A stretch of DNA of 64,000 nucleotides. Origin: Steroidobacteraceae bacterium (lineage in GTDB: Bacteria > Pseudomonadota > Gammaproteobacteria > Steroidobacterales > Steroidobacteraceae). Made by a program: the position numbers and the translations under genes. Location: the NCBI GenBank assembly GCA_035502275.1, contig DATJUN010000020.1:1821-65820 (forward strand), in the 5' to 3' direction. The stretch's first letter is position 1; every line of letters starts with the position of its first letter. Below, piece after piece: positions 23,253 to 60,897 of the stretch. Under the pieces are notes generated by a model. The model was not told the DNA's origin. It did no database searches and was given only the letters and a program-made list of their open reading frames with translations.

Positions 23253-23331
23253 GGCTGTCTCCTTGCGGCGTCCCCACAGCGATTGCAGGCGCGCTGGCAT
23301 AAGTCATTCTAGCCTCTTTGATTCAGGGCAT

Positions 23332-38142: not shown

Positions 38143-38338
38143 GCGCGGCCGGGGAAGCGCGGCGACTGGAGGCAGATAGTTGACTCCCGCGGGGGCTAAC
38201 GGAGACGCTATAGCACGGCCCACCGCCCGGGGGCCGGTATTCGGCCTCCGGATGTCTGACGGGCGGCGGTGCGGCGCGTCGCCGGTGCAGAAGCGTCCGC
38301 CGCACATAACTACAGGCGCGTGTGTAAAGGGAGGGACC

Positions 38339-44253: not shown

Positions 44254-46197
44254 ATGCTGCGTGCCTGCCCGAAGCGCGCGCCGTTGGCCGCGCGGGTATC
44301 GATCTTACCGTTAGTGCTGATTGGCCTGGCAATCCAGGCGACTGCAGCCACACCCAATCTCGCAGCGCTGCTGCGGCCGGGCGGTGTCCGCGCCGTACAG
44401 CTCTCGCCTTCAGGCTCGCGCGTCGCTGCCATCGTGCAAGGCGAGCAGAGCGACAGCGACCTGCTCGTGCTCGAAGAACGTCAGGGCAAGCTGACGACGT
44501 TGCTGTCGACCCACCTCGACAGTGCCGACGGCATTGCCGGGTACCGGTGGCTCTCAGACGATTACCTCGCGATCTACTACGCAGGTGATAACGACGAATT
44601 CGCACAGTTCGGGCTGCTCGACATTCCGCACCATGCGCTGCACGTGCAGGATCCCTTCACGCAGATCATCAAGGCTCCGTGGGGCGACGATACACACATG
44701 CTGCTGTCCGCAACGGGCGCAGCCAATTGCCGCAGCCACACCGTGGCGCGCTGCCTGCTGACGATGGACATTCGCTCGGGCAACAGCATTCGCTTCTCCG
44801 ATCCGTTCACCCAGGTACCGGTGAGCTTCCTGGCGGTTTCCACCAGCGAGATTTACGCGAGCGGACGCGACGGCGCCGGCCACGCGCATGACTATCAGCT
44901 CGATGTCTCCAGCCGCGAATGGAAACCAGTGGCCGACGGCACCCTGCAACGTCGGCAACAGGAACTGCAGGATGCGCCACCGCCGGCCGAAGTTCTGCAG
45001 CAGCAGACGCATGCGGCCATGCCCGCTGCCCTGCCCGTGTGGACCGAACCGGATCATCGCCTGGTCGGTCTGCTGGGGCTCGCCCCGCAGCGCGCCTTTC
45101 TTGCGCTGGATTCACGCCTTGATGGCGTGCAGGCACTGCTCGAGCAGAAATATCCCGAAGCGCGCGTGCAGATGAGCGGCCTCAATGCCGATCTGACGCG
45201 CGGCATGATCACGATCGCGGGTCCGGATCAGCCCCCGCTATACGTTTTTTTCACCGCGACCGGTTCGCTCACGCAATACGCCCAGCTCGAGCCTGACTTC
45301 AATCCCTCGGTGCTCGGACGCACGCACATGGAGCGTTCCTGGGTCGACGGTATGCCCGTCGCGATAACGCTGCCGCCACAAGGCATCACACCGGTCGGCG
45401 CCGTCATCGAACCCGTCATTGCCATGGCACCGCAGGCCGAGGAACCGCTGTCGCAGTACGACGGCCTGGTGCAGGCACTCTCGGAGAGTGGCCTGGTGGT
45501 CGTGCGACCCCTGATTGTCATTCCTTCCTCCTTTGACACACCTGCCGATGGGGGCGTGTGGCGGCAGCTACAGGGCGATCGGCTGCACATGCTCATGAGT
45601 CACGTGCGCGCAGCGCTCGTGCCCGGCAAAGCCGTGTGCCTGTACGGGGAGAATCTTGCGGGCACGCTGGCGCTGGCCTGGTCCGGCACGACCCGGGCTG
45701 ATTGCACCGTGACGGTCGGCGCACGACTCGATCCGGCAGCCTACACACATCCAATCATCATCATCCGCACCCAGCAGGGCGCACGTGCCATACGCCACGG
45801 TCGCATGTTCGTGCCCGCTCCGCCGGGCCAGGTGACCATGAGGGCCAGCGATCAGCAGCTGCATCGCGACCTGCCCGCGCAATTCGCAGTTGCAGGCACC
45901 GGTCAGCTCGTCGAGCCGACACACTGGGCGGCGCAGCTGCCGACAAGGCTGATGCTCGCCTATGATATGCAACTGCGCGCGCAGCAGGAGTTCGCGAGCG
46001 AATCGGGGGCATTTCGCCGGGCGGCCCAGCGCGCCGGGCGGCAGGTCGACTTCTACGCCAGTGAGAGCGTGGCTATCGACGACATCCAGTCGCGCGACCG
46101 GATGCTGCAGGCGGTCATCGATTACCTGCACCGGGCCATGATGACGCTACCAGCTGCCGCGACGGCAAGCACAGCCGGTGCGGCCCGTTCGCCCTGA
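44254..46197 (+). CDS. Secreted S9-peptidase-like protein without a visible nucleophile (paralog 2)
   Basis: Colinear with 38339-40243. Shared blocks: LSPSG.R.AA, GY.WL.D.YL, D.PHHA.H, KAPWGD..H.LLS.TG, RCLLT, SEIYASGRD.AG, GPDQPP.Y, LGRTH.ER.W..G.PV..TLPP.G. The elbow position reads CLYGENLAGTLALAWSG. Confidence 0.6.
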   Translation: MLRACPKRAPLAARVSILPLVLIGLAIQATAATPNLAALLRPGGVRAVQLSPSGSRVAAIVQGEQSDSDLLVLEERQGKLTTLLSTHLDSADGIAGYRWLSDDYLAIYYAGDNDEFAQFGLLDIPHHALHVQDPFTQIIKAPWGDDTHMLLSATGAANCRSHTVARCLLTMDIRSGNSIRFSDPFTQVPVSFLAVSTSEIYASGRDGAGHAHDYQLDVSSREWKPVADGTLQRRQQELQDAPPPAEVLQQQTHAAMPAALPVWTEPDHRLVGLLGLAPQRAFLALDSRLDGVQALLEQKYPEARVQMSGLNADLTRGMITIAGPDQPPLYVFFTATGSLTQYAQLEPDFNPSVLGRTHMERSWVDGMPVAITLPPQGITPVGAVIEPVIAMAPQAEEPLSQYDGLVQALSESGLVVVRPLIVIPSSFDTPADGGVWRQLQGDRLHMLMSHVRAALVPGKAVCLYGENLAGTLALAWSGTTRADCTVTVGARLDPAAYTHPIIIIRTQQGARAIRHGRMFVPAPPGQVTMRASDQQLHRDLPAQFAVAGTGQLVEPTHWAAQLPTRLMLAYDMQLRAQQEFASESGAFRRAAQRAGRQVDFYASESVAIDDIQSRDRMLQAVIDYLHRAMMTLPAAATASTAGAARSP

Positions 46198-46236: not shown

Positions 46237-48207
46237 TCACTGCGCGGCGAACGCCAGCACCACATTGCCCGAGTGGGCGACTCCTGATTGTCCGACGGAG
46301 TATCCGGAGCCTACGAACAGCATTCCGCCGACGACGGTGACGCCCTGCGAGCCCATCGCGCCACCGTGGGCTGGAACGTGATTCACCGTATCGAACGAGC
46401 GGTCCGTCTGATAGCTCCAGAGCACGTGTCCATCGCGGCTGGAAGCCGCCACGATGCTGCCGTCGGAGCCGCCGAGAAAAATGACTCCCGGGATCGCGGT
46501 CGCGGGCGAATCATAGCCAACACGCTGTTCCCCCGAATCGGTATGGATCGGGACCTGCCAAAGCCGCATGCCATCGGCAATGTGGATCGCGGCCAGGCCG
46601 CCGCCGACCTTCAGGCCGTAGTAGACGTTCCCGTCATCGACCGCCCCTCCCCACTGGATGCCGGTCTGGCGGAAGGCGGCGGGGCCGAAGGGCAGCCGCT
46701 GGGCCAGCTTGCCGGTCACGTTGGTGCGCCAGACGAGCCTGCCATCGTGATCCGGGTCGAAGGCGAGCACATCGCCGGGCTTGGTAGCCACCACGATCAG
46801 GCGATGGCCGTCGGGCAGGCGGTAGAGAATGGGCGATGCCGGCACATCCCAGTCCGGCCCCTCCGTTTGCGGACAGTTGTCGGTCGCACTGTCTCCGTAG
46901 CAGCCGCCGAGAAAGGCATCACCGCTGGTGATCTGATAGTGCCAGAGCATGTGCCCGTCCTTCATGGACAGCGCCATGACGGAATCGGACGTCGGCGCGG
47001 CCGGATCCGTGGTCGCATCGCCGGTACCGAAATAGATGGCCTGCCGTACCGGATCGACCACTGGCGTGTTCCACACCGAGCCGCCGGCGGGCGCGTACTG
47101 CTGCACGCCCTTGGAGTTGCGACGGGTCGGCTTCGGTCGCTGCGGGATCACATAGGTGTTCCACAGGATCCTGCCGGTATGGGCATCCAGCGCCACGATC
47201 TCGCCAACCGACGTGCAGCACGGATAGTCGAGCGACGCCGCCGAGAACTCCTCCCAGGAGGAGATTGGCACGTACAGTTTGCCGGCGTAGTAGGCCGGCG
47301 GCGCCGTGACCCGATCGGTGTACTGCTGCTCCACATGCGTGGACCACAGCTGCCGACCGGTGCGCGCATCGAGCGCATAGACATTGGCCTTCAGATCGCC
47401 GAACAGCGCGACATCGCGCTGCCGTCCCTTCACCGCGATGCGCTCGACGCGCAGCGCATTGCGCACGCCGGCCTGGGCGAGAAAGGACCAGTAGATGCAG
47501 CCGCTGCGCGCATCCATCGAGTACACGTAGCCAGTATCGGTGCCGACGAAGACACGGCCGGAGACCACCACCGGCTCGCTGTAGGCCGAGGTGGAATTGG
47601 GCAGGCCAAAGGCCCACTTCAATTTGAGGCGTGGCAGATCCTCGGTCGTCAGCCCCGCCGCGGCGCGTGGCTGAAAGCGCGTGTTGTCCCGATTATTTCC
47701 CCAGCCATTCCAGGAAGGACCGGCCGAGGGCGCACGCAGCGCCGGATCGGCGGCGCAGTGATCGGCCATATTCTTGTAGTCACCCTGCGGAGAGGTGCCG
47801 AGCAATCGGCCAGCCACCGCCTGTGCGACCAGGCGCCGCTGCTGATCGGTCAACTTATCGCCGACGGCTTTCATCACCCCGGAGCTGAGCGCCGTGTAGA
47901 TGCGCTCGGGCGAGTAGGTTCGCAGCACCGCTGGCAACGGGGCCTGCTTGACGTTCGGGTTTCCGTGGCAGGACAGACAGGTGTTCTGGAAAATGGCGAA
48001 TCCCTGCTCCGTGCCCGCGGTGAGCCCCTTGTCGGGCGCAGGGGCCGGCGGCGGGGCAGCAGATCTCTGCGCCGCCGCGGGTGCCTGGGCCCACACCGCA
48101 AGCGTCCCAGCGAAGCTGAGCAGTGCGCACAGCGCGATGGTGCGCGCAGCCCCCAAGGCCGATGCATTCGCTGCACCGGCCGCCAAGCCGTACCTTTCGA
48201 TCCGCAT
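46237..48207 (-). CDS. Quinohemoprotein dehydrogenase (cytochrome c plus PQQ propeller, PVA-dehydrogenase-like), copy 2
   Basis: Colinear with 25479-27350 and roughly 60 percent identical by eye, including CLSCHG and YSPERI..ALSSG..AVG.KL.D.Q.RLVAQAVAGRLLG. Trimmed to the ATG at 48207. Confidence 0.75.
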   Translation of the reverse strand: MRIERYGLAAGAANASALGAARTIALCALLSFAGTLAVWAQAPAAAQRSAAPPPAPAPDKGLTAGTEQGFAIFQNTCLSCHGNPNVKQAPLPAVLRTYSPERIYTALSSGVMKAVGDKLTDQQRRLVAQAVAGRLLGTSPQGDYKNMADHCAADPALRAPSAGPSWNGWGNNRDNTRFQPRAAAGLTTEDLPRLKLKWAFGLPNSTSAYSEPVVVSGRVFVGTDTGYVYSMDARSGCIYWSFLAQAGVRNALRVERIAVKGRQRDVALFGDLKANVYALDARTGRQLWSTHVEQQYTDRVTAPPAYYAGKLYVPISSWEEFSAASLDYPCCTSVGEIVALDAHTGRILWNTYVIPQRPKPTRRNSKGVQQYAPAGGSVWNTPVVDPVRQAIYFGTGDATTDPAAPTSDSVMALSMKDGHMLWHYQITSGDAFLGGCYGDSATDNCPQTEGPDWDVPASPILYRLPDGHRLIVVATKPGDVLAFDPDHDGRLVWRTNVTGKLAQRLPFGPAAFRQTGIQWGGAVDDGNVYYGLKVGGGLAAIHIADGMRLWQVPIHTDSGEQRVGYDSPATAIPGVIFLGGSDGSIVAASSRDGHVLWSYQTDRSFDTVNHVPAHGGAMGSQGVTVVGGMLFVGSGYSVGQSGVAHSGNVVLAFAAQ

Positions 48208-48366
48208 AAGGCCCCCGAAGTGTGGAATGGGCGCGCTGTCGAGCGATGCGTCCCCTGCGCCGGCGGGACGCTCAGAACGCGCCAGCGCAACCATATCGCT
48301 TCGATATCTGAGCGGTCAATGGACCACGGCGCACCGAGCTCGTGCGCGTGGCGTAAAATCGCGTGG

Positions 48367-49827
48367 ATGCGCCTGCTCTACATCGACATCGATACGTTGC
48401 GGTTCGATCATCTGGGCTGCTACGGCTACCCGCGCAACACCACCCCACACATCGACCGCCTGGCGGCGCAGGCCATCGTCTTCGACCGGATCTACGCCTC
48501 CGACACGCCGTGCCTGCCGAGCCGTACGGCGCTGCTCACCGGGCAATTCGGCATGCGTAACGGCGTCGTCAATCACGGCGGGACCGACGCCGACCCGGCG
48601 ATGGAGGGCGCGACACGCGGATTCCATACCCATCTGATGATGGACTCGTTTCCAAACAGGCTGAAGCGTGCCGGCCTGCGCACCGTGACGGTGAGCTCCT
48701 TCGCGTTCCGTCATTCAGCCTTCCACTGGTATGCAGGCTTCGATGAAGCCTACAACGTCGGCAAATACGGCATGGAAACGGCGGAGGAAGTGTATGCGGT
48801 CGCCGCCGAGTGGCTGCAGCGGCGCGGCGGCTCGGACAACTGGTTCCTGCACGTTCATCTTTGGGACCCGCATGGGCCCTATCGGGCGGCCGCCGCCTAC
48901 GGAGAGCCGTTCTCCGATCAGCCACACCCGACGTGGCTTACGGAGCAGATTCGCGCCAGCCACTGGCGCGGCTGCGGCCCACACAGCGCGCAGGAGGGAC
49001 GCGGCTTTCATCCCAACGAATACGACCGTGCCCACTATCCGCGTCAGCCGCAGGAGATCTTCGACATGGCCGCGGTGCGCGCCATGTTCGACGGCTACGA
49101 CACCGGCGTGATGGTCGCGGATCTGTACGCCGGACGGTTGTTTCGCCTGCTCGAGGAGCTCGGTATCTCGGACGATACGGCCGTGATGATCTCCTCCGAT
49201 CACGGCGAGACGCTGGGCGAGCTGAACATCTACTGTGATCACCACACCGCCGATGAATACACGACGCACGTGCCGTTGATCCTGAAGTGGCCCGGACTCG
49301 GCGCCGGCCGCCACGCGGGGATGCACTATCAGATCGATGTCAGCGCCACCCTGCTCGAGCTGCTCGGCCAGGAAGTGCCGGACAGCTGGGACGGACAATC
49401 CTTTGCGACGGGCCTGAAGACGCGCAGCGACGGCGGCCGCGATCATCTGGTGCTGTCACAGGGGGCCTGGACCTGTCAGCGTGGCGTGCGCTTCGAGGAT
49501 TGGATGCTCATCAGTACGCTGCACGATGGCTATCATCTGTTCGACGAAGTCATGCTGTTCGATCTCGAGCACGATCCCTTCGAGCAGCGCAATCTGGCGG
49601 ACAGCCGACCTGAAGTGGTCGCGCGCGGCCTCACGCTGCTGTCGCACTGGCATGCGCGCATGCTGCCGCACGCCGCGCGCGGACGCGATCCGCTCGAGCA
49701 CGTGGTGCGCGAGGGCGGCCCCTTTCATGTGCGTGGCGAGCTGCCCGCGTATCTGCAGCGCCTGCGCGCGACAGGACGCGCCGATCAGGCGGCGCTGCTG
49801 GCGGCGAGGTATCCCTCGCTCGCTTGA
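48367..49827 (+). CDS. Cys-type sulfatase (alkaline-phosphatase superfamily), no signal peptide
   Basis: LLYIDIDTLRFDHLGCYGY and the sulfatase signature TPCLPSRTALLTGQ (CxPxR formylglycine motif). An alternative start is at 48319. The upstream 690 aa of the 1179-aa track ORF is antisense to the PQQ gene and is rejected. Confidence 0.8.
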   Translation: MRLLYIDIDTLRFDHLGCYGYPRNTTPHIDRLAAQAIVFDRIYASDTPCLPSRTALLTGQFGMRNGVVNHGGTDADPAMEGATRGFHTHLMMDSFPNRLKRAGLRTVTVSSFAFRHSAFHWYAGFDEAYNVGKYGMETAEEVYAVAAEWLQRRGGSDNWFLHVHLWDPHGPYRAAAAYGEPFSDQPHPTWLTEQIRASHWRGCGPHSAQEGRGFHPNEYDRAHYPRQPQEIFDMAAVRAMFDGYDTGVMVADLYAGRLFRLLEELGISDDTAVMISSDHGETLGELNIYCDHHTADEYTTHVPLILKWPGLGAGRHAGMHYQIDVSATLLELLGQEVPDSWDGQSFATGLKTRSDGGRDHLVLSQGAWTCQRGVRFEDWMLISTLHDGYHLFDEVMLFDLEHDPFEQRNLADSRPEVVARGLTLLSHWHARMLPHAARGRDPLEHVVREGGPFHVRGELPAYLQRLRATGRADQAALLAARYPSLA

Positions 49828-49877: not shown

Positions 49878-50768
49878 TCAGCCCGCGTCCTTGTCCTTGC
49901 AGGGATGCGGTGCCCAGTTGGCATTATCAGGCTCACTGCGAAAATCCGAGCTGGTGATGAACGGCGCCATGAGATATTCCGGATCCACGACGTCCGTGGT
50001 CACATCGAACCACTTCTTTCCCACGGGGTCGGTGAAGGTCTGATAGTACTCGGTGAGCCGTGTATGCGAGCCGTAGGGGACGCCGTTGCGTCGCAGCCAG
50101 CCGGGGGCCAGATTCGAGGTGAGCACTTCCAGATCGCCGCCGGGCTCGGGCGCCGAAGGCGGGCCGAATCCACCGCCACGCTGTGGGCCGCGCAGCCCTT
50201 CATTGGCATTGATCGCATACGGCAACTGCCAGATCGCGACGGAGTTTCCCTGCAGGGAGGCGGCGCCCTGATCAGGACCGGCCGCAGCGCGCGCCGTCGC
50301 AGGCGCAGCGCCGTTATTTCCCATCGCACTCTCGCCGTAGGGCCTGCCGGGTATGAAATGGAACGTACGGGTCTGCTCGCCCCAATCCGTTTCCAGCTTG
50401 AGCGTATCGGGATCGCTCCAGGTGATGTGCACCCGCGTGGGCATGCGCATGAGGCCGGCGGCACCGTAGGCCAGGCAGGAGCCGTCCTGCGCCGTCGTCC
50501 ACAGGTCGGCGAGTTTCTTTCCGGCGGGGTTCAGCGGCACGCTGGCGTAGTCGCCGTGCGGGGGCGTGAGCATGCGCCAGCGCCAGTCCTCCGTGATGAC
50601 CGACACCCAATAGCCCGTCAGATCGATTGGCGCTGCTTCCTGCGCCGTTCCGGGAGCTTTCGGCCGCGCAGGCGCAGCGCGCTGCGCGAGCACCCCCTGT
50701 GACAGCAGCAGCGCAGGCACGAGCGCAGTGAAGCACGCGAGATGGCGCAATTTCATCTTATGATTCAT
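49878..50768 (-). CDS. Exported hypothetical protein, family X, short form (module 1, third gene)
   Basis: Signal peptide ..LLLSQGVLAQ, then DLTGYWVS, GDYASVPLN, C..YGAAG, LRRNGVPYG, DPEYLMAPF and a C-terminal PHPC. Paralog of 62010-62801. Confidence 0.65.
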   Translation of the reverse strand: MNHKMKLRHLACFTALVPALLLSQGVLAQRAAPARPKAPGTAQEAAPIDLTGYWVSVITEDWRWRMLTPPHGDYASVPLNPAGKKLADLWTTAQDGSCLAYGAAGLMRMPTRVHITWSDPDTLKLETDWGEQTRTFHFIPGRPYGESAMGNNGAAPATARAAAGPDQGAASLQGNSVAIWQLPYAINANEGLRGPQRGGGFGPPSAPEPGGDLEVLTSNLAPGWLRRNGVPYGSHTRLTEYYQTFTDPVGKKWFDVTTDVVDPEYLMAPFITSSDFRSEPDNANWAPHPCKDKDAG

Positions 50769-50769
50769 A

Positions 50770-51990
50770 TCAGTACTTCTTGCCGTTGGTTACCGCGGCG
50801 TCGGCGGGCACCAGCGTCGTGGTCTGCATCGAAAAGCTCGGGCCGTGCGCCGGCAGAGTCTTATAGATGGCCTCGATGAACTGGCGGGTCGTCCACGGAC
50901 CATCGTCATGGCCCCAGCGCTGGTCGTAGTCCCAGCTCGGCTTGATCGCCAGCACCTGCTGCAGTGTCTTGCCCTGATTCTTGTAGTACTGGACGCGATT
51001 GCGAATGATGGTCACGACGTTCTTGTAATGCACGACATCGGACTGGTCCCCGAACCTGCCATGTCCCGGAATGATGAGTGTGCCGCCTTCCTGCTTATCC
51101 TCCGGCACCGACATGTCGATGATGTGGTTCAGGGCCACGAGCTCCCCGTCGATGGTGCCCCCGCGTGCGGTATCGATGATGGGATAGCCCGTCAGGTCGA
51201 CGACATCCCCGGTGACCACGACATCGGAGCGGCGGAACATCACGATCAGATTGCCATCGGTGGTGGCATCGTGGGGATGGAACAGCTGCACCGCCTCCCC
51301 ATTGAAATGCATGTTGTAGGTGTCGAAGTCTTCGGTATCGGTCGGCCAGTTGGGCTGGGCCGCGTCGGCCACGCCGTTGGCGTTCTCCTGCACCAGCCGG
51401 GTCAGCAGGTTCTGGGTGGCGATCACACCAGCCCCGGATGTCAGCCCGGGATTATCGCGCGCGAAGTTGCCGGCCACGATGGTGCTACCGGCCTCGCGGA
51501 TGACGGCATTGCCGCCGATGTGATCGGGTAAGCCATCCGTATCGATGACGTAGCGGATCGCCTTCTGATCACCGCCTTTTTCCTGGTCCAGGCGCTGAAT
51601 CTGCGACAGCAGCTCCCTGGCCATGTCCTTCACGCCGGTGTCGACGACCAGCACGCCCTCATCGCCGATCTGCACGGCGACACTGGCTTCGCGCGGCTCA
51701 CCGGCCATGAGCCACACCTGGCCCTGAGCCTGATAGGGCTGAATGTGTCCATCACTGCGTGGCAGTGCGTAGATGTCCTCGCCCGGCGAGCCCGACTGCG
51801 TGGCCTCGCTGTCGGGCTCGGCCGCAGCGGCTGCTGCATAGGGCAGCGCCGCGAGGCTCGCCGTCGCAAGCACGATACCCGCAATGCTGGCCACCACCGC
51901 GAGCGAGCCGCGGGTGCGGCCAGCTCCCTGGTGACGGGGTGGAAAAGTCTGCACGGTGTACTCCGTGAGGATGGACCCGGACGGCTTCAT
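50770..51990 (-). CDS. MBL-fold protein with a degenerate metal-binding motif (module 1, second gene)
   Basis: The beta-lactamase-fold block order is recognisable (VLVVDTG ... IRYVIDTDGLPDHIGGN ... HPHDATTDGNLIV ... VVVTGDVV ... IIPGHG), but HxHxDH reads DxLxDH. Has an N-terminal hydrophobic export segment. ATGA overlap upstream and a 1-nt gap downstream. Confidence 0.65.
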   Translation of the reverse strand: MKPSGSILTEYTVQTFPPRHQGAGRTRGSLAVVASIAGIVLATASLAALPYAAAAAAEPDSEATQSGSPGEDIYALPRSDGHIQPYQAQGQVWLMAGEPREASVAVQIGDEGVLVVDTGVKDMARELLSQIQRLDQEKGGDQKAIRYVIDTDGLPDHIGGNAVIREAGSTIVAGNFARDNPGLTSGAGVIATQNLLTRLVQENANGVADAAQPNWPTDTEDFDTYNMHFNGEAVQLFHPHDATTDGNLIVMFRRSDVVVTGDVVDLTGYPIIDTARGGTIDGELVALNHIIDMSVPEDKQEGGTLIIPGHGRFGDQSDVVHYKNVVTIIRNRVQYYKNQGKTLQQVLAIKPSWDYDQRWGHDDGPWTTRQFIEAIYKTLPAHGPSFSMQTTTLVPADAAVTNGKKY

Positions 51991-52910
51991 TGGGCCGCCT
52001 CTTCCCGGATGATCTGCTGCTCCTGCTTCTCGATCTGGGACAGCGGCGGATTGGGTGGCATCTTCTTCATGGTGTCCTGGTATTCCGGCAATGCGGTCTG
52101 GGCACCCCCGAGCGAAGCCTTGATGGGTACCCCGTTACGCACCGCGTATTCATCCATCATGGCGTTGTAGCCGGGCAGGTGCATTGGCACGATGCCCTCG
52201 GCGCGGGGAATCTCATCGACCTGGCTGCAGGGATAGGGCTCCATCTCCCCGTCAGCCGCACGGAACCATTCATTGCTCTTGACCAGGGGCTCGCTCAGGT
52301 ACTGCGGGTCGGAGATCATCATGATATCGGTGAGAATGTCCCCGTAGCGCATGAAGCGCTCGTCCATGGTCGCCTTGTCATCGGTGGGCAGGCCGTTGCG
52401 GCGCGTCCAGGCAGCCTTGACCATGTCGGTGTGCACATGGAGCACATTGCCGACCCAGTGCCCCACCGAGTAGCCCTGCCAGGTCTCGCGTGCCCACGGC
52501 GGGGGATGCGGATGAGGCACCATCCAGATGTGGCGGTGCTGTGACATCCACATGATCCAGGTTTCGATCTGGGTCTGGGCGTTGGTATAGGGGTCGCGAT
52601 CCTCCCAGATGCGCAGGTTCCCCACCGCACGGGTCCCGTAGATGGATGGGTGCGGCCGGCACTGCAGCTCCGGCAGTGTCAGGCGCTCGGGGTCCCAGGT
52701 GTGGGCCACCGAGACGGCCGCCGCTGTCACCGGCAGGCCGGCGTAATCTCCCTGATCGGGTCCTGGAATGCGCTCGTTGACGTCCTCGTCGAACAGCGGA
52801 TTCCAGTAGCCATCCAGCAGCGACTGGGCGCCGGAAGGATGAGAAGCCAGCGCCGCGCCGATCGCGTAAGCCACCGCCAGCCAGACAGAATGCCGTCTCG
52901 CTTTCACCAT
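51987..52910 (-). CDS. Exported hypothetical protein, family X, long form (module 1, first gene)
   Basis: Signal peptide ..ASHPSGAQS, then LLDGYWNP, GDYAGLPV, LQCRPHP, GHWVGNVLHV, WTRRNGLPT, DPQYLSEPL and PYPC. Paralog of 62798-63838 and distantly related to 49878-50768. Confidence 0.65.
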   Translation of the reverse strand: MVKARRHSVWLAVAYAIGAALASHPSGAQSLLDGYWNPLFDEDVNERIPGPDQGDYAGLPVTAAAVSVAHTWDPERLTLPELQCRPHPSIYGTRAVGNLRIWEDRDPYTNAQTQIETWIMWMSQHRHIWMVPHPHPPPWARETWQGYSVGHWVGNVLHVHTDMVKAAWTRRNGLPTDDKATMDERFMRYGDILTDIMMISDPQYLSEPLVKSNEWFRAADGEMEPYPCSQVDEIPRAEGIVPMHLPGYNAMMDEYAVRNGVPIKASLGGAQTALPEYQDTMKKMPPNPPLSQIEKQEQQIIREEAAQ

Positions 52911-53312
52911 GTCATGCCTCTGACGTAAATACCGACCCCCGCTGTACGCGGCGCAGCCCCTGACGCACGATCATCCGCCGGGCCACACCGCTCGTGCAGC
53001 GATTGGAAGAAACGTTCTTTTGGTCGCTTAAAGTGATCGCCTGCTGCCACCTGGACGACACCGCATCCGTTGAGCGTCGCTGCGCAAAGTATCCGGGAAG
53101 TTAGGTATAGCAGGCACCGCGCCCCCCGGTATCAGCGCCAGCGCGACCCTAGCGCTCGCCATGATAGTCGTCAATAGCGGCAGGGCGACGCCTGTCCGGC
53201 TGCGCTGCCGGGCAGCTTCACCGAGCAGCCACTGCCGATGCCGCCGGCCGACGCTCCCTGCGTCCAGGCACGCCCGGAAGTTGATACCTTCGACCGTTTT
53301 CCTGTAGCGTTT

Positions 53313-53332
53313 GTAACTGTACACTAAGTTAC
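53313..53332. promoter_or_regulatory. Inverted repeat GTAACT-N8-AGTTAC in an AT-rich island upstream of the TonB-dependent receptor
   Basis: Read directly from the sequence (gtaactgtacactaagttac, containing TGTACA). It lies 160 nt upstream of the receptor start, in the only low-GC stretch of the 582-bp intergenic region. Confidence 0.3.
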
Positions 53333-53354
53333 TCAAAGAACTGTTAGGGGGTCG

Positions 53355-53390
53355 CGAGTCAATTGCGGTGGCGCTGCACCGCCTGACTCG
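53355..53390 (+). other. Interrupted 13-bp stem-loop in the putative 5' leader of the TonB-dependent receptor gene
   Basis: CGAGTCA(att)GCGGTG-gcgctg-CACCGC(c)TGACTCG. The two helices pair 53355-61 with 53384-90 and 53365-70 with 53377-82. Confidence 0.35.
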
Positions 53391-53492
53391 TACTACAAAA
53401 CCAAACGACCACGCCCGTTACGGTGCGAGCGCGCCGACCCCGGTCATGCCGCCTCACTTTCGAGTGAATACAAACTTTAGGGGGACCTTTTC

Positions 53493-56087
53493 ATGAAGAT
53501 TCGTCCAACTATCCACGTTCCCTTGGCGCTCGCACTGGTGGGTGCGACGCTCTTATCGATTGGGACCGCGGTGGCACAGAACCAGACAGACCAGCCCGCC
53601 AATCAAGGCGCCGCTCCAGCTGCCGCGGACCAGGGCACCTCGGCCGCGGCGGGGCAAGGCGGCGCTACGGAACTGCAGGAAGTGGTGGTCACCGCCGAGC
53701 GTCGCGCCACCGACGTGCAGAGCACGCCGATTGCAGTCACCGCGGTGTCGGGGGATCAGCTGCAAACGCTGCACCTGAACAACATCAGCGATCTGCAGAC
53801 GACGGTGCCGAGCTTTCAGAGCAACGACGAGGCCGGATTCTTCAACAGCATCAACATCCGCGGTATTGGCAACTCGGCCATTACGCCCATCATCGCCACC
53901 GGTGTGGCCGTGTTTCGCGATGGACTGCTGATGTCGGAGACGATCGCCGAAGACGAGCCGATGTTCGACATCGCCGATACGGAGGTTCTGGAAGGGCCGC
54001 AGGGCACCTTCGTGGGCGCCAGCTCGACGGCAGGCGCCGTGGAAATCAATTCGGCCAACCCGACCTTCACCGGTGTCAATGGCTACATTCAGGGTGACCT
54101 CGGTAATTACTCCGACACCAAGTTCCAGGGCGCCGTCAACCTGCCGGTCACCGACACCTTCGCGGCACGCTTTGCCTTCAACAGTGAGCAGCGCAACAGC
54201 TTCTACAACGACGTGGGAGCGACCCAGAACGGGTTCTACTATCCAGCCTATCCGGGAGTTGCCGGCAGCCAGCTGCCGCTCATCCAGGCCAGTCCGGGCC
54301 AGAGTCTTCCCATCATCGACCCGGGCCATGAAAATGATCGCGAGATGCGCCTGAGCCTGCTGTGGAAACCGAGTGATCGCTTCCAGGCATTGGGCAAGAT
54401 CGAATACAGCGACATCAATACCGGTGGTGAGCCGGGCGAACCCAATCCGGATACCTACAACACCCTCTTCAGCGCTGGTTCTGGCCCCGGCTATGCCGGA
54501 TGCACGCTCGCCCCCGGGACAGGGTTCACGGGCAACCAGCTCAGCTGCGCCGCGCCAGGCACAGCGGTGCATTCACAGTACTACTACCCGGGCGAGAAGC
54601 CGTTCGTTCTCGACTACTACGGCACCGGTCAGCAGGAAGACGAATTGCTGACGCACTATGGGCTGGATCTGCGTTATACGCTGCCCGACGGCATCCAGAT
54701 CCGCTCGCTCAGCGGCTTCGTGCACATCTATATCAATCACCAGGACAACAACAGCTACGCTCCGTGGAATGCGGGCTGGACCTATCATGAGATCGGGCCG
54801 AACGACGACTATATGAGCCAGGAGGTCGATATCATCTCGCCGACCACCGGCAAAACCAGCTGGATCGCCGGGGCGTTCTGGAACTATCGCGACACGCCCG
54901 TATTCCTCGATATCGACAGCGTCACCGCACCCTACCAGCCCAACCAGCTGCCGTCGGTTCTGGTAACGACGGCCGTGCCGAGTACCAATCGCATCGCGGC
55001 GGTGTTCGGACAGTTCAACTGGCAATTCACCGATACCCTGCAGCTGCAGATCGGCGCCCGCGAGAACTGGGACAATAACTTCTCGACGCAGAGCACCGGC
55101 GAGGCCCCGGCGGCCGGGACCACGGTCCCGGCGCCTTCCGGCACGGGCGTGTATCTCATCCATTACACCGGCACCTCTCCGACCGGCTATACCGTCCTGT
55201 CGCGTTCGCTTGCTTCGGGACGATTCGAGGACAACGTCCCGACCGGCAAGATCGACCTCAACTGGACCCCGGCGCCCGGCCAGAACTTCTATCTGTTCTA
55301 TGCCCGCGGCTACAAGGCGGGCGGCAACAATTCCAGCTCAACAGATCACCCACTCTTCAGTCACGAGACCGTCAATGACTATGAGATCGGCTGGAAGGGA
55401 CGCCTGCTCGACGGTCACATGCAAACCCAGGTGGGCGGGTACTACTATAACTATCAGAACATGCAGTACTCGCTGTTCGATCCACAGCAGAACGGCGACA
55501 CCTCCACCGGCACCTACGTGGCCAACCTGGCGCCCTCGACCATCTATGGCATCGAAGTCTCGGAACAGGCCCGGTTCAGCGGCCTTGGGGTGAATATCGG
55601 CTTTGACTACAATCACAGCGCGCTCGGCGCTGTCACGACGCTGCCCAACTACGCGTTGCCCGCCGGCTTTGGCAGCCCCACGACGTTACCGCAGTGTCTG
55701 CCCGGGCACACCTATGCCACCGGCACTGCCTGCTTCAACTACAACCCCTACCTGGTCAACGTCAGTGGTGAGGAGAATCCGTTCGCACCGCAGATTACCT
55801 TCAACATCTCGGTCGATTATCAGTTTCACGTCGGCAACGGGACGATCGACCCGCGGGTGACCTTCTCGCATACGGATCAGCAGTACGCGTCGATCTTCCA
55901 GGTCCCCTACAACCTCATGCAGGCCCGTAATCTGTGGAGCGCAAGCGCCGACTGGGTGGTCGGCAAGTGGGACACACAGCTGTACGGCACCAACCTGAGC
56001 AACGAGACCTACATCATCGCCGGCGGCAATCCGCTCTACTACGGAGCACCGCGGCAATTGGGCCTGCAGGAGACCTTCCACTTCTGA
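53493..56087 (+). CDS. TonB-dependent outer-membrane receptor
   Basis: Signal peptide, the plug motif ELQEVVVTAERRATDVQSTPIAVTAVSG, a long beta-barrel with aromatic-rich strands, and a C-terminal ..LQETFHF ending in Phe. Confidence 0.9.
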   Translation: MKIRPTIHVPLALALVGATLLSIGTAVAQNQTDQPANQGAAPAAADQGTSAAAGQGGATELQEVVVTAERRATDVQSTPIAVTAVSGDQLQTLHLNNISDLQTTVPSFQSNDEAGFFNSINIRGIGNSAITPIIATGVAVFRDGLLMSETIAEDEPMFDIADTEVLEGPQGTFVGASSTAGAVEINSANPTFTGVNGYIQGDLGNYSDTKFQGAVNLPVTDTFAARFAFNSEQRNSFYNDVGATQNGFYYPAYPGVAGSQLPLIQASPGQSLPIIDPGHENDREMRLSLLWKPSDRFQALGKIEYSDINTGGEPGEPNPDTYNTLFSAGSGPGYAGCTLAPGTGFTGNQLSCAAPGTAVHSQYYYPGEKPFVLDYYGTGQQEDELLTHYGLDLRYTLPDGIQIRSLSGFVHIYINHQDNNSYAPWNAGWTYHEIGPNDDYMSQEVDIISPTTGKTSWIAGAFWNYRDTPVFLDIDSVTAPYQPNQLPSVLVTTAVPSTNRIAAVFGQFNWQFTDTLQLQIGARENWDNNFSTQSTGEAPAAGTTVPAPSGTGVYLIHYTGTSPTGYTVLSRSLASGRFEDNVPTGKIDLNWTPAPGQNFYLFYARGYKAGGNNSSSTDHPLFSHETVNDYEIGWKGRLLDGHMQTQVGGYYYNYQNMQYSLFDPQQNGDTSTGTYVANLAPSTIYGIEVSEQARFSGLGVNIGFDYNHSALGAVTTLPNYALPAGFGSPTTLPQCLPGHTYATGTACFNYNPYLVNVSGEENPFAPQITFNISVDYQFHVGNGTIDPRVTFSHTDQQYASIFQVPYNLMQARNLWSASADWVVGKWDTQLYGTNLSNETYIIAGGNPLYYGAPRQLGLQETFHF

Positions 56088-56187: not shown

Positions 56188-57450
56188 TCACGGCTCAGCG
56201 CGCGCGGCGCGCAGTTCGGCCAGGATCTCGCCGGCGTGGGCAAAGGCAGTATTGGCGGCTGGCACACCGGCGTACACCGCCGACTGCATCAGCACCTCGC
56301 GCAGTTCCTCTTCGCTGAAGCCGCCGGGGGCAAGCCCCGCGCGCACATGCAGACGAAATTCCTCCCACCGCCCGAGCGCGATGGTCGTTGCCAGCACCAA
56401 CAGCCGCCGTGTACGCCGGTCCAGCCCCGGACGGCTCCAGATCTCCTGCCACGCGCTGCGCGTGATCATCTCCTGAAAGTCGCTGTTGAACAGCGTGCGC
56501 GTGGCCAGCGAGCGATCCACCCAGGCATCCCCGAGCACTTCGCGCCGGATGCCGAGGCCGGCCTCGTAAAGGGTTGCGGCGGCAGCCTGAAGGCGCTGGT
56601 CCTGCGCAGCCACGCCACGCGGATCTGCCGCCGCTGCAGGCGGCGCATCCGCCGTGCTGTCCGTCCACGCCACTGACTTCAGAAACTCGCATACCGCCGA
56701 GGCAAAAGGCCCGGGCGCCTCCAGGCAGGCCAGATGCCCTGCCTCGAGAGCGACGTGGCGGGCATTGGGGAGAGCGGCCAGGAGCCGGGCACCATGCGGC
56801 TCGAAGGGCGCGTCGACGTCCTTCGTCCCGGAGAGCAGCAACACCGGTTGCTGCACCGAGCTCAGCTGCTGCGCCAGGGCCATGTCGCGGATCGCCGCCG
56901 CGCCCCCGGCATAGCCGCGTGGATCGATCAGTCGCAGCGCCGTGCGCATGCTGTCGATGACCTGCGGATTCGCGTGCGCAAAGTCATCGCTGAAGGAACG
57001 CGCGATCGCAGGCGCCAGCACCGGCGCCATGCCCTGCGCACGCACCCGTTGCGCGCGCTCTGCCCAGTCGGCCGTGCTCACCTGCGCGCTGCTGCAGGCG
57101 CAGATCACTGCGCGCACGCGCGCTGGCGCCCGCAGGCCCAGCGTGAGAGCAACCGCGCCGCCGAGTCCCATTCCGCACACCGCTGACTGCTGCGTCGATG
57201 AGGCATCCAGTACGGTCCGTGCATCGTCGGCCAGATCCTCCAGCCGATAATCGCCGGGCGGGGCGTCGGAGGCACCGTGCCCCCGGCCGTCCATACGCAA
57301 TACCCGAAAGTGCGGCAGCAGCCCCGGCACCACGCGATCCCACAGCGACAGATCCGCGCCGAGGGAATTCAGCAGCAGCACGACGGGATGGCCATCGGTG
57401 CCCTCCAGCCGCCAGTAGAGGCGTACTCCGGCGTTAGTCGTGAACGGCAT
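56188..57450 (-). CDS. pcaL: Fused 3-oxoadipate enol-lactonase / 4-carboxymuconolactone decarboxylase (PcaL-type PcaD-PcaC fusion)
   Basis: N-terminal alpha/beta hydrolase (VVLLLNSLGADLSLWD, nucleophile elbow VCGMGLGG in place of the usual GxSxG) joined by an Ala-rich linker to a C-terminal CMD domain (LDRRTRRLLVLATTIALGRWEEF..HVRAG). Trimmed to the ATG at 57450. 17-nt overlap with pcaB. Confidence 0.8.
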   Translation of the reverse strand: MPFTTNAGVRLYWRLEGTDGHPVVLLLNSLGADLSLWDRVVPGLLPHFRVLRMDGRGHGASDAPPGDYRLEDLADDARTVLDASSTQQSAVCGMGLGGAVALTLGLRAPARVRAVICACSSAQVSTADWAERAQRVRAQGMAPVLAPAIARSFSDDFAHANPQVIDSMRTALRLIDPRGYAGGAAAIRDMALAQQLSSVQQPVLLLSGTKDVDAPFEPHGARLLAALPNARHVALEAGHLACLEAPGPFASAVCEFLKSVAWTDSTADAPPAAAADPRGVAAQDQRLQAAAATLYEAGLGIRREVLGDAWVDRSLATRTLFNSDFQEMITRSAWQEIWSRPGLDRRTRRLLVLATTIALGRWEEFRLHVRAGLAPGGFSEEELREVLMQSAVYAGVPAANTAFAHAGEILAELRAARAEP

Positions 57451-58624
57451 GGATGTGCGGTTCGGCGCTGTCCTTGCATTGCCTTCGATAGTGATCGAGG
57501 CAGCGGCCGACCAGCTGGATGGACAGGCCGATGTCGTCCCCGACGCCGCTGGCGGCGAGGTTCGCAGCCATGGCGACCGTATCGACCTCCAGCGCCTCGA
57601 CCACGACACGCATGGCCTGCAAGGCCCCGTGCGTCAGCTCGAATAGCGTGGCCAGCGCGGGAGCCTCCGCCTGCCAGCCGCCGAGACCGCGCTGATGCTC
57701 CTGGGGTAGCCCCGCCAGAATTCCCGCCGCCAGCCCCGGGGCTCGGATCGCCGCGGACAGTGCGATCTGGCAGCCGGTGGGATTGCGTTTGTGGGACATG
57801 CTGGAGGAGCCGCCGCGTCCGCTGATGCGCGGCTCGAAGGCTTCGTGCACTTCGTGCTGCGCAAGCAGCGAGATATCGCGCGCGAGCTTGCCCGTGGCGC
57901 CCGAGACAACGGCGAGTGCGCCGGCGAGCCCCGCCACGCCATCACGGCGCGCAGTCCACGGCAGAACCGGGGCCGCGAGCCCGAGCTCAGCGGCCATTCG
58001 CTCGAGCACTTCCAGCGACAGCCCCTGCAGCGTGCCGGCCGCACCTGCGAGCTGTAGCAACAGCGCCGCGCGGCACTCCCACGCGAAGCGCTGCAATGCC
58101 TGGTGGATGCCCAGCAGCCACTGCGACGCCTGCAATCCAAACGTCGTCGGTAACGCTGGCTGCAGCAGCGTGCGCGCCAGCGCGGGCGTACGTGCGTGGC
58201 TCTCGGCCACTCTCGCGAGCGCATCGGTCAACGCGCGTCCCTCGCGCTGGATCAGATGTGCGCCGGCCTTTGCCTGCAGCATCAGCGCGGTGTCGGCCAG
58301 GTCCTGGCTGCTCGCCCCCCGATGCAGCAGCCGCGCAGCCTCCGCGTCCTGCTCGGCGATGCGCGCACGCAGCCGTGGCAGCAGCGCCAGAGCGAGGGTG
58401 CCGGCATGCGCGGCTTCCTCGGCCAGCGTGGCCACCTCGAAACGGGCGCTGTCGCAGACCGCACCGATGGCGGCGGCAGCCGATTCCGGAATCAGCTTCG
58501 CAGCGGCCTGCGCGCGTGCCAGCGACGCCTCGAAGGTGAGTGCAGCCTGCAGCAGCGCCTCATCGCCGAAGACTGCCAGCATCTCAGACGAGGAGGCGGG
58601 ACGGTCACGCAGCAGAGCGGCCAA
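57434..58624 (-). CDS. pcaB: 3-carboxy-cis,cis-muconate cycloisomerase
   Basis: Fumarate-lyase superfamily signature GGSSSMSHKRNP. Position between pcaG and pcaDC. Confidence 0.8.
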   Translation of the reverse strand: MAALLRDRPASSSEMLAVFGDEALLQAALTFEASLARAQAAAKLIPESAAAAIGAVCDSARFEVATLAEEAAHAGTLALALLPRLRARIAEQDAEAARLLHRGASSQDLADTALMLQAKAGAHLIQREGRALTDALARVAESHARTPALARTLLQPALPTTFGLQASQWLLGIHQALQRFAWECRAALLLQLAGAAGTLQGLSLEVLERMAAELGLAAPVLPWTARRDGVAGLAGALAVVSGATGKLARDISLLAQHEVHEAFEPRISGRGGSSSMSHKRNPTGCQIALSAAIRAPGLAAGILAGLPQEHQRGLGGWQAEAPALATLFELTHGALQAMRVVVEALEVDTVAMAANLAASGVGDDIGLSIQLVGRCLDHYRRQCKDSAEPHIHAVHD

Positions 58625-58635
58625 GGTGCTCCCCG

Positions 58636-59415
58636 CTAGTAGTCGAAGAACACCGTCTCGCGCTCGCCCTGCAGGCGCACGTCGAAGCGGTAGTGAGCCC
58701 GTGTGTCGGTGCTCGGGCCGGCTGCGCCCGTAGCTGTGGCATCGATCCGCTGCGCCATCAGCGTCGCGCGGCGATGGGCGGGCACGAGCCCGAGAATGGG
58801 ATCTTCGGCGTTGCTCGGCTCATCATCGAAATAGATGCGCGTCGTCAGGCGCTTGAGCAGTCCACGGCCGAGCACGCCGAGCGCGATGTGTGGCGACTGC
58901 AGCGCGCCAGCGGCCGCCTTGAAGTGAACGCGGCCGGGCCGGATGGTGCGAAAGCAGAAGCTGCCATCCTCGGCTGTCGCCGCGCGACCAAAGCCAAAGA
59001 AGTCCTCATCGATGCTGGCGGAGCCGCGGCCGACAAAGCCGGAACCGCGATAGTAGCCCGACGCATTGGCCTGCCAGATCTCCAGCAGTACGTCCGGCAC
59101 CGGCCTGCCCTGCGCATCGAATACATACCCCGTGAGCTGCAGGCGCTCGCCCATCGGTGGCGCGGCGCGACTGCGCTCCGGTCCGCGCAGCGCCGCGTAG
59201 CCGGTCGGCATCAGATCGGGCCGTCCACCCGTCTGCGATGGCCCCGTCAGATCGGCGCAACCATCCCAGGGCAATCCAAAGTGAAAGAAAGGCCCTACGG
59301 TTTGCCAGGGCGTCTGGCCGAACAGGCCCGGAGTCTGATTGTCGGCCCGTGCCGCGACGGCAGCGGAGTCTGACCGCGGCTCCGGCGCCGGTGCGCTGTG
59401 CTGTCCCGTGTCCAT
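58636..59415 (-). CDS. pcaG: Protocatechuate 3,4-dioxygenase alpha subunit
   Basis: QTPWQTVGPFFHFGL and the intradiol dioxygenase fold. Carries an N-terminal extension of about 25 aa relative to typical PcaG if the ATG at 59415 is used. Confidence 0.8.
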   Translation of the reverse strand: MDTGQHSAPAPEPRSDSAAVAARADNQTPGLFGQTPWQTVGPFFHFGLPWDGCADLTGPSQTGGRPDLMPTGYAALRGPERSRAAPPMGERLQLTGYVFDAQGRPVPDVLLEIWQANASGYYRGSGFVGRGSASIDEDFFGFGRAATAEDGSFCFRTIRPGRVHFKAAAGALQSPHIALGVLGRGLLKRLTTRIYFDDEPSNAEDPILGLVPAHRRATLMAQRIDATATGAAGPSTDTRAHYRFDVRLQGERETVFFDY

Positions 59416-59436
59416 CAGCTTCGCAAGGCGACCGTT

Positions 59437-60174
59437 TCAGATCCCGGCGCGCAATGGCGTCGCGGCGCGGCCGCGCAGCACGATGTCGAAACGATAACCC
59501 AGAGCATAACTTGGCTGCGTGATGTTGATATCGAAGTGCGCAACCATGCGCTGGCGGTATGCACGTGGTACGGCGTTGGCAATTGGATCAATCTCGATCA
59601 GCGGGTCGTCGGGAAAGTACATCTGCGTGACGAGGCGCGTGGCGAATGCCGGACCCATGAGCGAGAGGTGAATGTGCGCCGGACGCCAGGCATTGTAGTG
59701 ATTGCCCCACGGATAGGCGCCCGGTCGCACCGTGGTATAGCGATAGCGCCCCTGCTCGTCGGTCACGACACGTCCCGCCCCGCTGAAGTTGGGATCCAGC
59801 GGCGCATCCCATTGATCGCGCTCGTGGGCATAGCGGCCCGCCGCATTCGCCTGCCACATCTCGATCAGAGTGCGCGCGACCGGCCGTCGATCCTCGTCCA
59901 GTACCTGACCGCAGACGATGATGCGTTGACCCAGCGCGGGTGCACCCCGCGTGCAGGTCAGGTCGGTAACCTGCGCGCCAAACAGCGCTTCCCATTCGCC
60001 GGGGCCGCTCTGCTCCGTGGGCGTCTGCGGAATGCGCAGCAGCGGCTCGCGCGGGGAGCGCTCGACGGTGGATGCATACGGCGGAAACAGCGATGGGGGC
60101 TGCGCGCCGTCCTCACGCCGGAAGTCCGCGCCGGCGTTGCTCAGCTGGGCGTTCACGACACAGATTGTCCCCAT
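59437..60174 (-). CDS. pcaH: Protocatechuate 3,4-dioxygenase beta subunit
   Basis: IEMWQANAAGRYAHERD and WRPAHIHLSLMGPAFATRLVTQMYFPDDPL, containing the Fe-ligand Tyr/His region. Trimmed to the ATG at 60174 (246 aa). Confidence 0.85.
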   Translation of the reverse strand: MGTICVVNAQLSNAGADFRREDGAQPPSLFPPYASTVERSPREPLLRIPQTPTEQSGPGEWEALFGAQVTDLTCTRGAPALGQRIIVCGQVLDEDRRPVARTLIEMWQANAAGRYAHERDQWDAPLDPNFSGAGRVVTDEQGRYRYTTVRPGAYPWGNHYNAWRPAHIHLSLMGPAFATRLVTQMYFPDDPLIEIDPIANAVPRAYRQRMVAHFDINITQPSYALGYRFDIVLRGRAATPLRAGI

Positions 60175-60320
60175 AGAAGCGGCGCGCGGCAAGCGAGCGC
60201 GCACAGCGAGGGCCTGCGCACACCCTCTGCATATCCTACAGGTGGACAGGGAAAGCGGCTGCTGGCAACCGCGGACGCCCACCCACATGATTACACTGGC
60301 AATTTTCGCTGGGGGAAACG

Positions 60321-60740: not shown

Positions 60741-60897
60741 ATGAGCGACCGCGCGGGGTCCGACGAGACCTGCGTGCACCAGATGCAAAGCCGACCTCAG
60801 ATTCCCGCAACTGCAGATCCCCTTGCCGGTGCTATCTTGGTATTGGCTCATGCCCCATGCGAGCGTCGAAGACGCGTCATCGAGGCGAGGGGGTTTC

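Follow-up and report, generated by a model that had tools for sequence, protein, structure and literature searches.

A conserved gene trio encoding an exported metallo-beta-lactamase-fold protein and two paralogous proteins of predicted beta-barrel fold

A coupled gene trio and its conservation

The stretch of DNA analyzed here, 64,000 nucleotides of contig DATJUN010000020.1 from the metagenome-assembled genome of a Steroidobacteraceae bacterium (hereafter the window), carries an operon of three minus-strand genes, A1, M1, and C1 (Table 1). M1 encodes a protein with a metallo-beta-lactamase (MBL) fold, while A1 and C1 encode members of a single unnamed family that is predicted to form beta-barrels. 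The stop codon of A1 and the start codon of M1 share the tetranucleotide ATGA, and only 1 base lies between the stop codon of M1 and the ATG of C1; the three genes are translationally coupled at both junctions. Upstream, the operon is flanked by a divergent gene for a TonB-dependent receptor and, downstream, by a convergent sulfatase gene.

In each of the three proteins, a basic stretch at the N terminus leads into a hydrophobic segment. Using a hydropathy heuristic (rather than SignalP), we found a signal-like N terminus in 106 of 107 full-length A-type homologs, 111 of 117 C-type homologs, and 104 of 117 M-type homologs, with hardly any further membrane-like segment beyond the N-terminal one. 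An initial annotation of this DNA had described a three-gene minus-strand operon, with an ATGA overlap and a 1-nucleotide gap, whose products are all exported. Its coordinates and both junctions are exact, and by the same heuristic export signals are nearly universal across the three families. The outcomes that it had named as grounds for refutation were all checked for, and none was obtained.

Family hidden Markov models (HMMs) for A, C, and M were run on the six-frame open reading frames (ORFs) of 86 related loci and the window (87 loci in total). The same-strand order A-M-C was found in 54 gene groups and the order M-C-A in 6, together with a few more complex tandem arrangements. Among C-type genes from other species that have at least 4 kb of flanking sequence on each side, 49 of 55 (89%) have M and A as same-strand neighbors. 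The trio, which the initial annotation had marked as a unit to be sought in other genomes, is therefore syntenic across two phyla, Acidobacteriota and Proteobacteria.

Gene fusions also link the three families. Among the top 150 representatives, 22 are A+M fusions of ~600 amino acids in which the A part is always N-terminal and carries the sole signal peptide; such fusions are present as uninterrupted ORFs in at least 9 genome loci. One further protein (P0361) is a clean A+C fusion. In several genomes, a span of 16 kb holds two or three trios, as one would expect of cassettes whose ligands have diversified. Stop and start codons that overlap, a gene order that is fixed in two phyla, and recurrent fusions are a classical signature of subunits acting together, and from this signature we infer that A, M, and C form a physical complex.

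The barrel family

The initial annotation had judged the first and third products of the operon to be homologous, and this assessment holds. A1 and C1 are 24% identical by BLASTP (E value of 1e-10), and an hhalign comparison of the family alignments (72 A-type and 66 C-type homologs) gave a probability of 99.8% and an E value of 4e-29 over 196 columns, indicating that A and C are true paralogs. The motifs that had been pointed out in the two proteins are all conserved in the merged A+C alignment, namely, L-x-G-Y-W, GDY..P, the first Cys, W-x-RRNG-(V/L)-P, DP-x-YL..P, and P-x-P-C. Across 399 barrel domains, positions G52, W54, D61, R65, G72, D73, C98, R134, G174, S176, W180, R226, R/K227, N228, G229, E240, D262, P263, and C290 (C1 numbering) are conserved at about 90% or more, counted over the sequences covering each column. 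The G-x-W motif is essentially invariant, with G52 being Gly in 373 of 373 and W54 being Trp in 371 of 373 covering sequences.

The two conserved cysteines (C98 and C290 in C1, C84 and C228 in A1) vary together. Both are present in 347 sequences and neither in 11, while only 5 sequences have a single one (Fisher P = 9e-17). Such joint loss would be expected of a structural disulfide in an exported protein and supports the conserved disulfide that had been suggested from A1 and C1 alone.

No function for A1 or C1 had been recognized in the initial annotation, and database searches bear this out. Neither protein matched Pfam-A or NCBIfam, none of 101 diverse barrel members did so at an E value of ≤0.01, and searches of PDB sequences with single A or C sequences and with profiles gave no meaningful match. 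The 618 homologs of A1 and the at least 6,360 homologs of C1 all lack a name ("hypothetical protein"). The family is nevertheless large. A barrel profile search of 1.84 billion representatives clustered at 50% identity retrieved 9,214 proteins at an E value of ≤1e-3 and 3,612 at ≤1e-10, and a scan of one genome per species with the C-family alignment located at least 595 loci. The best 80 of these loci are all from metagenome-assembled genomes, ~62 of them from Acidobacteriota (Vicinamibacterales, Bryobacteraceae, and Terriglobia) and ~15 from Proteobacteria, mostly Gammaproteobacteria including Steroidobacteraceae, plus one from Caulobacterales. A tblastn search of plasmids gave no match with C1 and four weak matches with A1, in cultured Sphingomonadales; these are divergent solo barrels, annotated as hypothetical, that are encoded beside DUF6152 and receptor genes.

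AlphaFold2 models made from the family alignments have a predicted local distance difference test (pLDDT) score of 81.6 and a predicted template modeling (pTM) score of 0.77 for A1, and scores of 80.2 and 0.76 for C1. Nine strands are predicted in both types. In the layout common to A1 and C1, strand 1 with the G-x-W motif is followed by a ~60-residue helical insert that holds GDY..P and the first Cys, and then by eight more strands, with the RRNG-P loop between strands 6 and 7 and the second Cys just past the last strand. Only A1 has a conserved C-terminal helical extension, at about residues 235-307; C1 is without it and has two variable low-confidence loops. Foldseek searches of the PDB with A1 returned CRBP1, fatty acid-binding proteins (FABPs), UnaG, and wilavidin (best E value, 3e-3; target-normalized TM-score, 0.5-0.6), while C1 matched streptavidin and avidin weakly (E value of about 5e-2). 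Over both proteins calycins rank best, but with E values of only 3e-3 to 5e-2 and TM-scores of 0.45-0.60 on the target. The models thus point weakly to an FABP/calycin-like barrel, a description of fold that claims no family membership.

The MBL subunit and a diverged second trio

M1 is a member of the MBL superfamily, matching PF00753 with 32.8 bits (gathering cutoff, 22.7 bits), and M homologs carry this domain too. Its best NCBIfam matches are two SoxH-related models, TIGR04559 (50 bits; cutoff, 280) and TIGR04558 (36 bits; cutoff, 300). Canonical trio MBLs from other loci reach 76-103 bits on TIGR04559, which is also below the cutoff. All class B beta-lactamase subclass models gave ≤35 bits with M1 (cutoffs, 100-240), and its best PDB profile match, BcII (E value of 7e-9), covers part of the domain only. 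M1 was accordingly rejected both as a beta-lactamase, with scores far below the class B cutoffs, and as a member of TIGR04559. The trio MBLs form a separate, unnamed MBL subfamily.

Ligand positions were derived from an alignment with BcII and a tally, column by column, of 258 family domains. D120, H121, D221, and H263 are conserved across the M family, as is a further His (H238 in M1), while H116, H118, and H196 are variable. The full H-x-H-x-D-H...H...D...H ligand set is retained by the majority of the trio MBLs found in species genomes. At the equivalents of H116/H118/D120/H121/H196/D221/H263, M1 reads D-L-D-H-T-D-H, with D-G-L-P-D-H in place of the H-x-H-x-D-H motif. Among its distal ligands, Thr replaces H196, D262 (equivalent to D221) and H310 (equivalent to H263) are present, and the invariant H238 lies five residues upstream of the Thr. 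This pattern indicates that metal site 1 of M1 has been lost and site 2 kept. The same variant is typical of its gammaproteobacterial relatives (loci L007-L011 and L014) and is also found in a locus from Vicinamibacteria (L012). M1 has, in addition, a C-terminal extension of ~90 residues.

A second trio is present on the plus strand of the window (60823-63838); neither it nor the degenerate metal site of M1 had been noted in the initial annotation. Its genes are ordered M-C-A, with 4-bp overlaps between them, and their products, M2, C2, and A2, are seen from their similarity to be old paralogs of the first trio. M2 has the ligand pattern S-D-D-L-R-H-A-R and the motif S-x-D-x-D-L for H-x-H-x-D-H, nearly all metal ligands being gone; it scores 41 bits on TIGR04559. 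The RRNG motif of A2 has degenerated to W-M-T-H-N-F. M2 is probably non-catalytic and the second trio probably not a hydrolase, and it may represent a pseudo-enzyme version of the module.

For every M protein tested, TIGR04559 or TIGR04558 was the best NCBIfam match, which could be taken to mean that the trio is a carrier-protein relay like Sox or a "quinoprotein relay." The barrel cysteines would then be redox active or carry a covalent intermediate, and a SoxH-like MBL would hydrolyze the adduct. Such a relay would suit the strict co-conservation of the Cys pair and the pyrroloquinoline quinone (PQQ)/cytochrome c dehydrogenases that are encoded near trios in 9 loci, two of these enzymes being encoded in the window. 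However, the TIGR04559 scores (41-103 bits) are far under the 280-bit cutoff, the 11 members that lack both cysteines but are otherwise intact are more easily reconciled with a structural disulfide than with an essential catalytic pair, and the loci yielded neither a SoxYZ-like carrier nor a CXXCW protein. We regard a relay of this kind as very improbable.

The metal sites also bear on whether the subunits need each other. Residues W54, D61, R65, D73, R134, S176, W180, R226, R/K227, N228, G229, E240, and D262 are kept in A and C regardless of the ligand state of M, even where M has lost ligands, and erosion of MBL ligands is frequent in this lineage. Together with the existence of barrels without MBL genes, this would be compatible with three co-regulated but independent periplasmic proteins that form no complex. 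The barrels would be ordinary binding proteins or enzymes, and their invariant polar residues could form an active site of the kind seen in beta-barrel cyclases and isomerases. We consider such independence rather unlikely, as it is difficult to account for the recurrent A+M and A+C fusions, the fixed order, and the overlapping stop and start codons across two phyla unless the proteins are coupled physically or in their stoichiometry. A complex of A, M, and C remains the arrangement that we prefer.

Neighborhoods, possible roles, and comparison with known systems

The other ORFs of the 87 loci were clustered, and representatives were checked with Pfam. The most frequent extra partner is DUF6152 (PF19649). 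Of the 87 loci, 33 have its gene, which often separates M from C (A-M-u-C, where u is DUF6152) or immediately precedes a C-type gene. Small DUF6644-like membrane proteins are encoded as a tandem pair in 16 loci; homologs of these proteins in locus L004 give weak DUF6644 matches. Type-B carboxylesterases with twin-arginine translocation (Tat) motifs were found in 12 of 87 loci and are co-operonic with the trio in L001, L014, and L036; in L001, a Tat-exported carboxylesterase gene (E) starts an E-M-C-A operon with spacings of 8 bp and 16 bp and a 4-bp overlap. TonB-dependent receptor-like ORFs are present in about 24 of 87 loci, 12 of which have one no more than 700 bp from a trio gene. These four partners are recurrent without being universal. 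The window also contains a DUF6152 gene, a DUF6644-like pair followed by a TetR regulator gene, and a carboxylesterase gene, all ~30 kb from the trio.

The initial annotation had taken the surrounding genes as a sign of an outer-membrane or periplasmic device. A TonB-dependent receptor is, however, found in only about a quarter of the loci and directly adjacent in 12, and PQQ dehydrogenases recur in 9. The sulfatase begins directly with its catalytic domain and has no signal peptide, so that it is probably cytoplasmic; being convergent and not a recurrent neighbor, it was rejected as a part of the trio system.

DUF6152 relatives have an invariant His-His-Ser at the predicted mature N terminus and an invariant Asn-Pro-His downstream, and the DUF6644-like proteins have one invariant His. 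Literature searches found no paper containing the term DUF6152 or DUF6644, and nothing relevant on an MBL fold together with lipocalin-like and TonB-dependent proteins. A lead for this gene pair is provided by the CopC/CopD-type copper import pair. On the plasmid of a cultured bacterium, Croceibacterium atlanticum (NZ_CP011453.2; locus L088, 6751-10950), the gene order is DUF6152-DUF6152-divergent barrel (WP_053833712.1)-TonB-dependent receptor, followed by MarR, with no MBL gene; barrels therefore also work outside the trio. In locus L091 (9001-11922; ena:ERZ12293048 scaffold_151_c1), an A-M-C trio lies inside a photosynthesis cluster, between puhA/B/C-acsF-puhE and pufCML, with ferritin and DsbA-like genes downstream. 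Other trios are found near signaling genes with a Kelch-type propeller and a dienelactone hydrolase, or near efflux pumps, and there is one solitary A-type gene.

These neighborhoods could also be read as an envelope-spanning uptake or metal route. The barrels, DUF6152, and the DUF6644-like pair would pass a metal or metal chelate inward from the TonB-dependent receptor to the inner membrane, the MBL protein, and in some loci a carboxylesterase, would break the chelator as the release enzyme, the barrels would be siderocalin-like, and DUF6152 is taken to be immunoglobulin (Ig)-like. The abundance and placement of DUF6152, the units u-C-w-w and u-u-barrel-receptor, which lack an MBL gene, and the invariant His residues just described would accord with such a route, as would the conserved Arg clusters on the barrels, the ferritin and DsbA genes of L091, and the HupE/UreJ_2 and cytochrome c genes downstream in L004. 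Several observations speak against it. The receptor gene of the window has no visible Fur- or Zur-like box in its upstream region, the barrels have no conserved metal-binding His, Cys, or Met beyond the disulfide pair, the DUF6152 gene and membrane pair of the window are distant from the trio, and most trios (54 A-M-C groups) are without DUF6152 or a receptor directly beside them. Furthermore, the CopC/CopD analogy is tentative, and the only PDB matches of the DUF6152 profile are weak ones to Ig-like adhesin repeats (6xi3). A metal route is in our judgment unlikely.

In an extended form, cargo (a metal, a metallophore, or a hydrophobic nutrient) would move along a new route from the TonB-dependent receptor to barrels A and C and the His-His-terminated DUF6152, and on to the paired DUF6644-like four-helix inner-membrane proteins, with the MBL protein, and in some loci a carboxylesterase, releasing it. 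We hold this to be rather improbable; if true, it would be a new class of uptake or processing machinery, common in Acidobacteriota and Steroidobacteraceae.

The intergenic region between the trio and the receptor gene presumably holds the promoters of both. It contains an imperfect palindrome, GTAACTgtacactaAGTTAC, that is a candidate regulator binding site. Scans for promoters and terminators gave chance-level results only, repeats within the region amount to short, weak pairs, and an Rfam scan of the whole window had no match and thus gave no riboswitch clue to the cargo of the receptor. The window as a whole is an aromatic/alcohol-catabolism island that has pcaHG, pcaB, a pcaD/C fusion, a hydroquinone dioxygenase, two PQQ/cytochrome c dehydrogenases, and aldehyde dehydrogenases. 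By similarity, the minus-strand genes at 56188-60288 encode the protocatechuate branch of the beta-ketoadipate pathway. A plus-strand ORF at 46288-49827 (1179 codons) is a high-G+C artifact that overlaps the antisense of a PQQ dehydrogenase gene; only its last ~470 codons encode the sulfatase. Three sizeable ORFs of coding-like composition had no Pfam match at an E value of ≤0.001, one of them, of 647 amino acids, having a signal-like N terminus and a sub-threshold match to Gmad1 (E value of 0.016).

Table 1. Features of the window discussed in the text
Feature	Position	Strand	Remarks
A1, exported A-type beta-barrel protein (predicted fold)	51987-52910	minus	307 aa; HTT04175.1, annotated "hypothetical protein"
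M1, exported MBL-fold protein	50770-51990	minus	406 aa; HTT04174.1, annotated "MBL fold metallo-hydrolase"
C1, exported C-type beta-barrel protein (predicted fold), paralog of A1	49878-50768	minus	296 aa
Intergenic region, presumed shared promoter region of trio and receptor gene	52911-53492		582 bp
Imperfect palindrome, candidate regulator site	about 53312-53331		GTAACTgtacactaAGTTAC
TonB-dependent receptor, divergent from trio	53493-56087	plus	864 aa; Plug and TonB_dep_Rec_b-barrel domains
M2, diverged MBL-fold paralog	60823-62013 (start uncertain)	plus	HMM match 195 bits; 32% identical to M1
C2, second C-type barrel	62010-62801	plus	263 aa; HTT04183.1; 37% identical to C1
A2, second A-type barrel	62798-63838	plus	346 aa; HTT04184.1; 28% identical to A1
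DUF6152 protein	16926-17330	plus	PF19649, 76 bits
Two tandem DUF6644-like membrane proteins	17524-18030 and 18089-18691	plus	Family HMM, 186 and 221 bits
TetR regulator	18747-19376	plus	TetR_N
Tat-exported type-B carboxylesterase	21558-23300	minus	PF00135, 345 bits; RRSFL Tat motif
Cys-type (C-L-P-S-R) sulfatase	about 48418-49827	plus	Last ~470 codons of ORF 46288-49827
pcaD/pcaC fusion	56188-57609	minus	By similarity
pcaB	57434-58624	minus	By similarity
pcaG and pcaH dioxygenase subunits	58636-59415 and 59437-60288	minus	By similarity
Hydroquinone 1,2-dioxygenase large-subunit-like gene and two PQQ dehydrogenases	24386-25396, 25479-27350, and 46237-48294	minus	PnpCD_PnpD_N; dehydrogenases with N-terminal cytochrome c domains
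Three sizeable ORFs	44254-46197, 40276-41493, and 38180-40243	plus, minus, and plus	No Pfam match at E ≤ 0.001

We tentatively propose, as a plausible though not yet probable explanation, that the trio is a periplasmic ligand-binding and hydrolysis complex. A, M, and C would be Sec-exported subunits of a periplasmic hetero-oligomer in which the MBL-fold subunit is paired with two paralogous, disulfide-stapled, FABP/calycin-like barrel subunits. The barrels would bind a small organic ligand, which, in view of their invariant Arg/Asp/Glu constellation, would probably be amphipathic or hydrophobic and have an anionic group. The ligand would enter the periplasm through the outer-membrane receptor or be made there by esterases or dehydrogenases, and the barrels would pass it to the MBL subunit or take it from there. 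In most family members the MBL subunit would be a canonical two-metal hydrolase, while M1, with its Asp120/His121/His263 (+Asp221) half-site, would be a one-metal enzyme or have shifted to a binding or scaffold role. Handling of small organic molecules in the periplasm is suggested by the FABP-like topology, the polar constellation, the co-operonic periplasmic esterases, the adjacency of outer-membrane receptors, and the multiple copies per genome.

The following points weigh against this ligand-binding and hydrolysis complex. M1 is without three of the seven canonical ligands and M2 without nearly all, so that hydrolysis by M cannot be a universal function. The Foldseek matches of the barrels are weak (E values of 3e-3 to 5e-2), with TM-scores of about 0.5-0.6 that are normalized to small targets. 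Barrel genes occur without an adjacent MBL gene, beside genes for DUF6152, DUF6644-like proteins, or TonB-dependent receptors (L024, L069, and L086, and the Croceibacterium plasmid). Finally, the wider neighborhoods are heterogeneous (photosynthesis cluster, efflux pumps, signaling genes), and no substrate can be read from the context.

The folds themselves are familiar ones; no library or paper that we searched describes the barrel family, the MBL subfamily, or the tripartite organization. The barrel family is large, occurring in at least 595 species genomes, and dominant in soil Acidobacteriota and Steroidobacteraceae, yet invisible to Pfam, NCBIfam, and the PDB. Its fixed partnership with an MBL protein, natural fusions included, would mark a periplasmic machine that is kept in several copies by abundant, poorly cultured soil bacteria. 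Once solved, the ligand and reaction would assign a function to thousands of genes, and they could bring to light a new mode of substrate recruitment by MBL-fold enzymes or a new step of periplasmic transport.

Of the known systems that invite comparison, CopC/CopD concerns only the partner genes. Like CopC, DUF6152 would be a small, exported, beta-sandwich-like protein whose predicted mature N terminus starts with His, and downstream of its gene are encoded small polytopic membrane proteins that have a His in common. Unlike that pair, these proteins have no Pfam CopC or CopD match at the thresholds used, the genes in the window are 30 kb from the trio, and metal binding is putative.

The barrels resemble calycins (FABP/retinol-binding proteins, avidin, and lipocalin) in the G-x-W motif on the first strand, which is invariant in A and C; the models further suggest, with weak structural matches, an antiparallel up-and-down barrel of ~9 strands and, as in FABPs, a helical insert between the first and second strands. 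They differ from calycins in having no detectable sequence similarity to them (Pfam, NCBIfam, and PDB), in their putative conserved disulfide and their RRNG-P loop, and, for type A, in a 70-residue helical tail; they are also twice the size of FABPs, with a 60-residue lid.

M shares its exported PF00753 fold with the SoxH-like and class B MBL branch (TIGR04559, "quinoprotein relay system zinc metallohydrolase 2"; BcII and CphA), and the canonical trio MBLs keep H-x-H-x-D-H, H196, D221, and H263. The half-site retained in M1 (D120, H121, and H263) corresponds to metal site 2 of class B lactamases, the site that subclass B2 beta-lactamases use with a single zinc. However, M1 scores 50 versus 280 bits on TIGR04559 and 35 versus 100 bits on the class B core model, has Asp, Leu, and Thr for H116, H118, and H196 of BcII and a ~90-residue C-terminal extension, and its gene is always accompanied by those of two barrel proteins.

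SdsA1-type alkylsulfatases and NAPE-PLD are MBL-fold enzymes that act on amphipathic substrates with the help of an added hydrophobic-ligand-binding module. No sequence relationship between them and the trio proteins was found, and the binding modules of the trio would be separate paralogous barrels or an N-terminal fusion rather than an SCP2-like C-terminal domain. The likeness is one of concept only, by analogy, in that both would combine an MBL unit with a module that binds a hydrophobic ligand.

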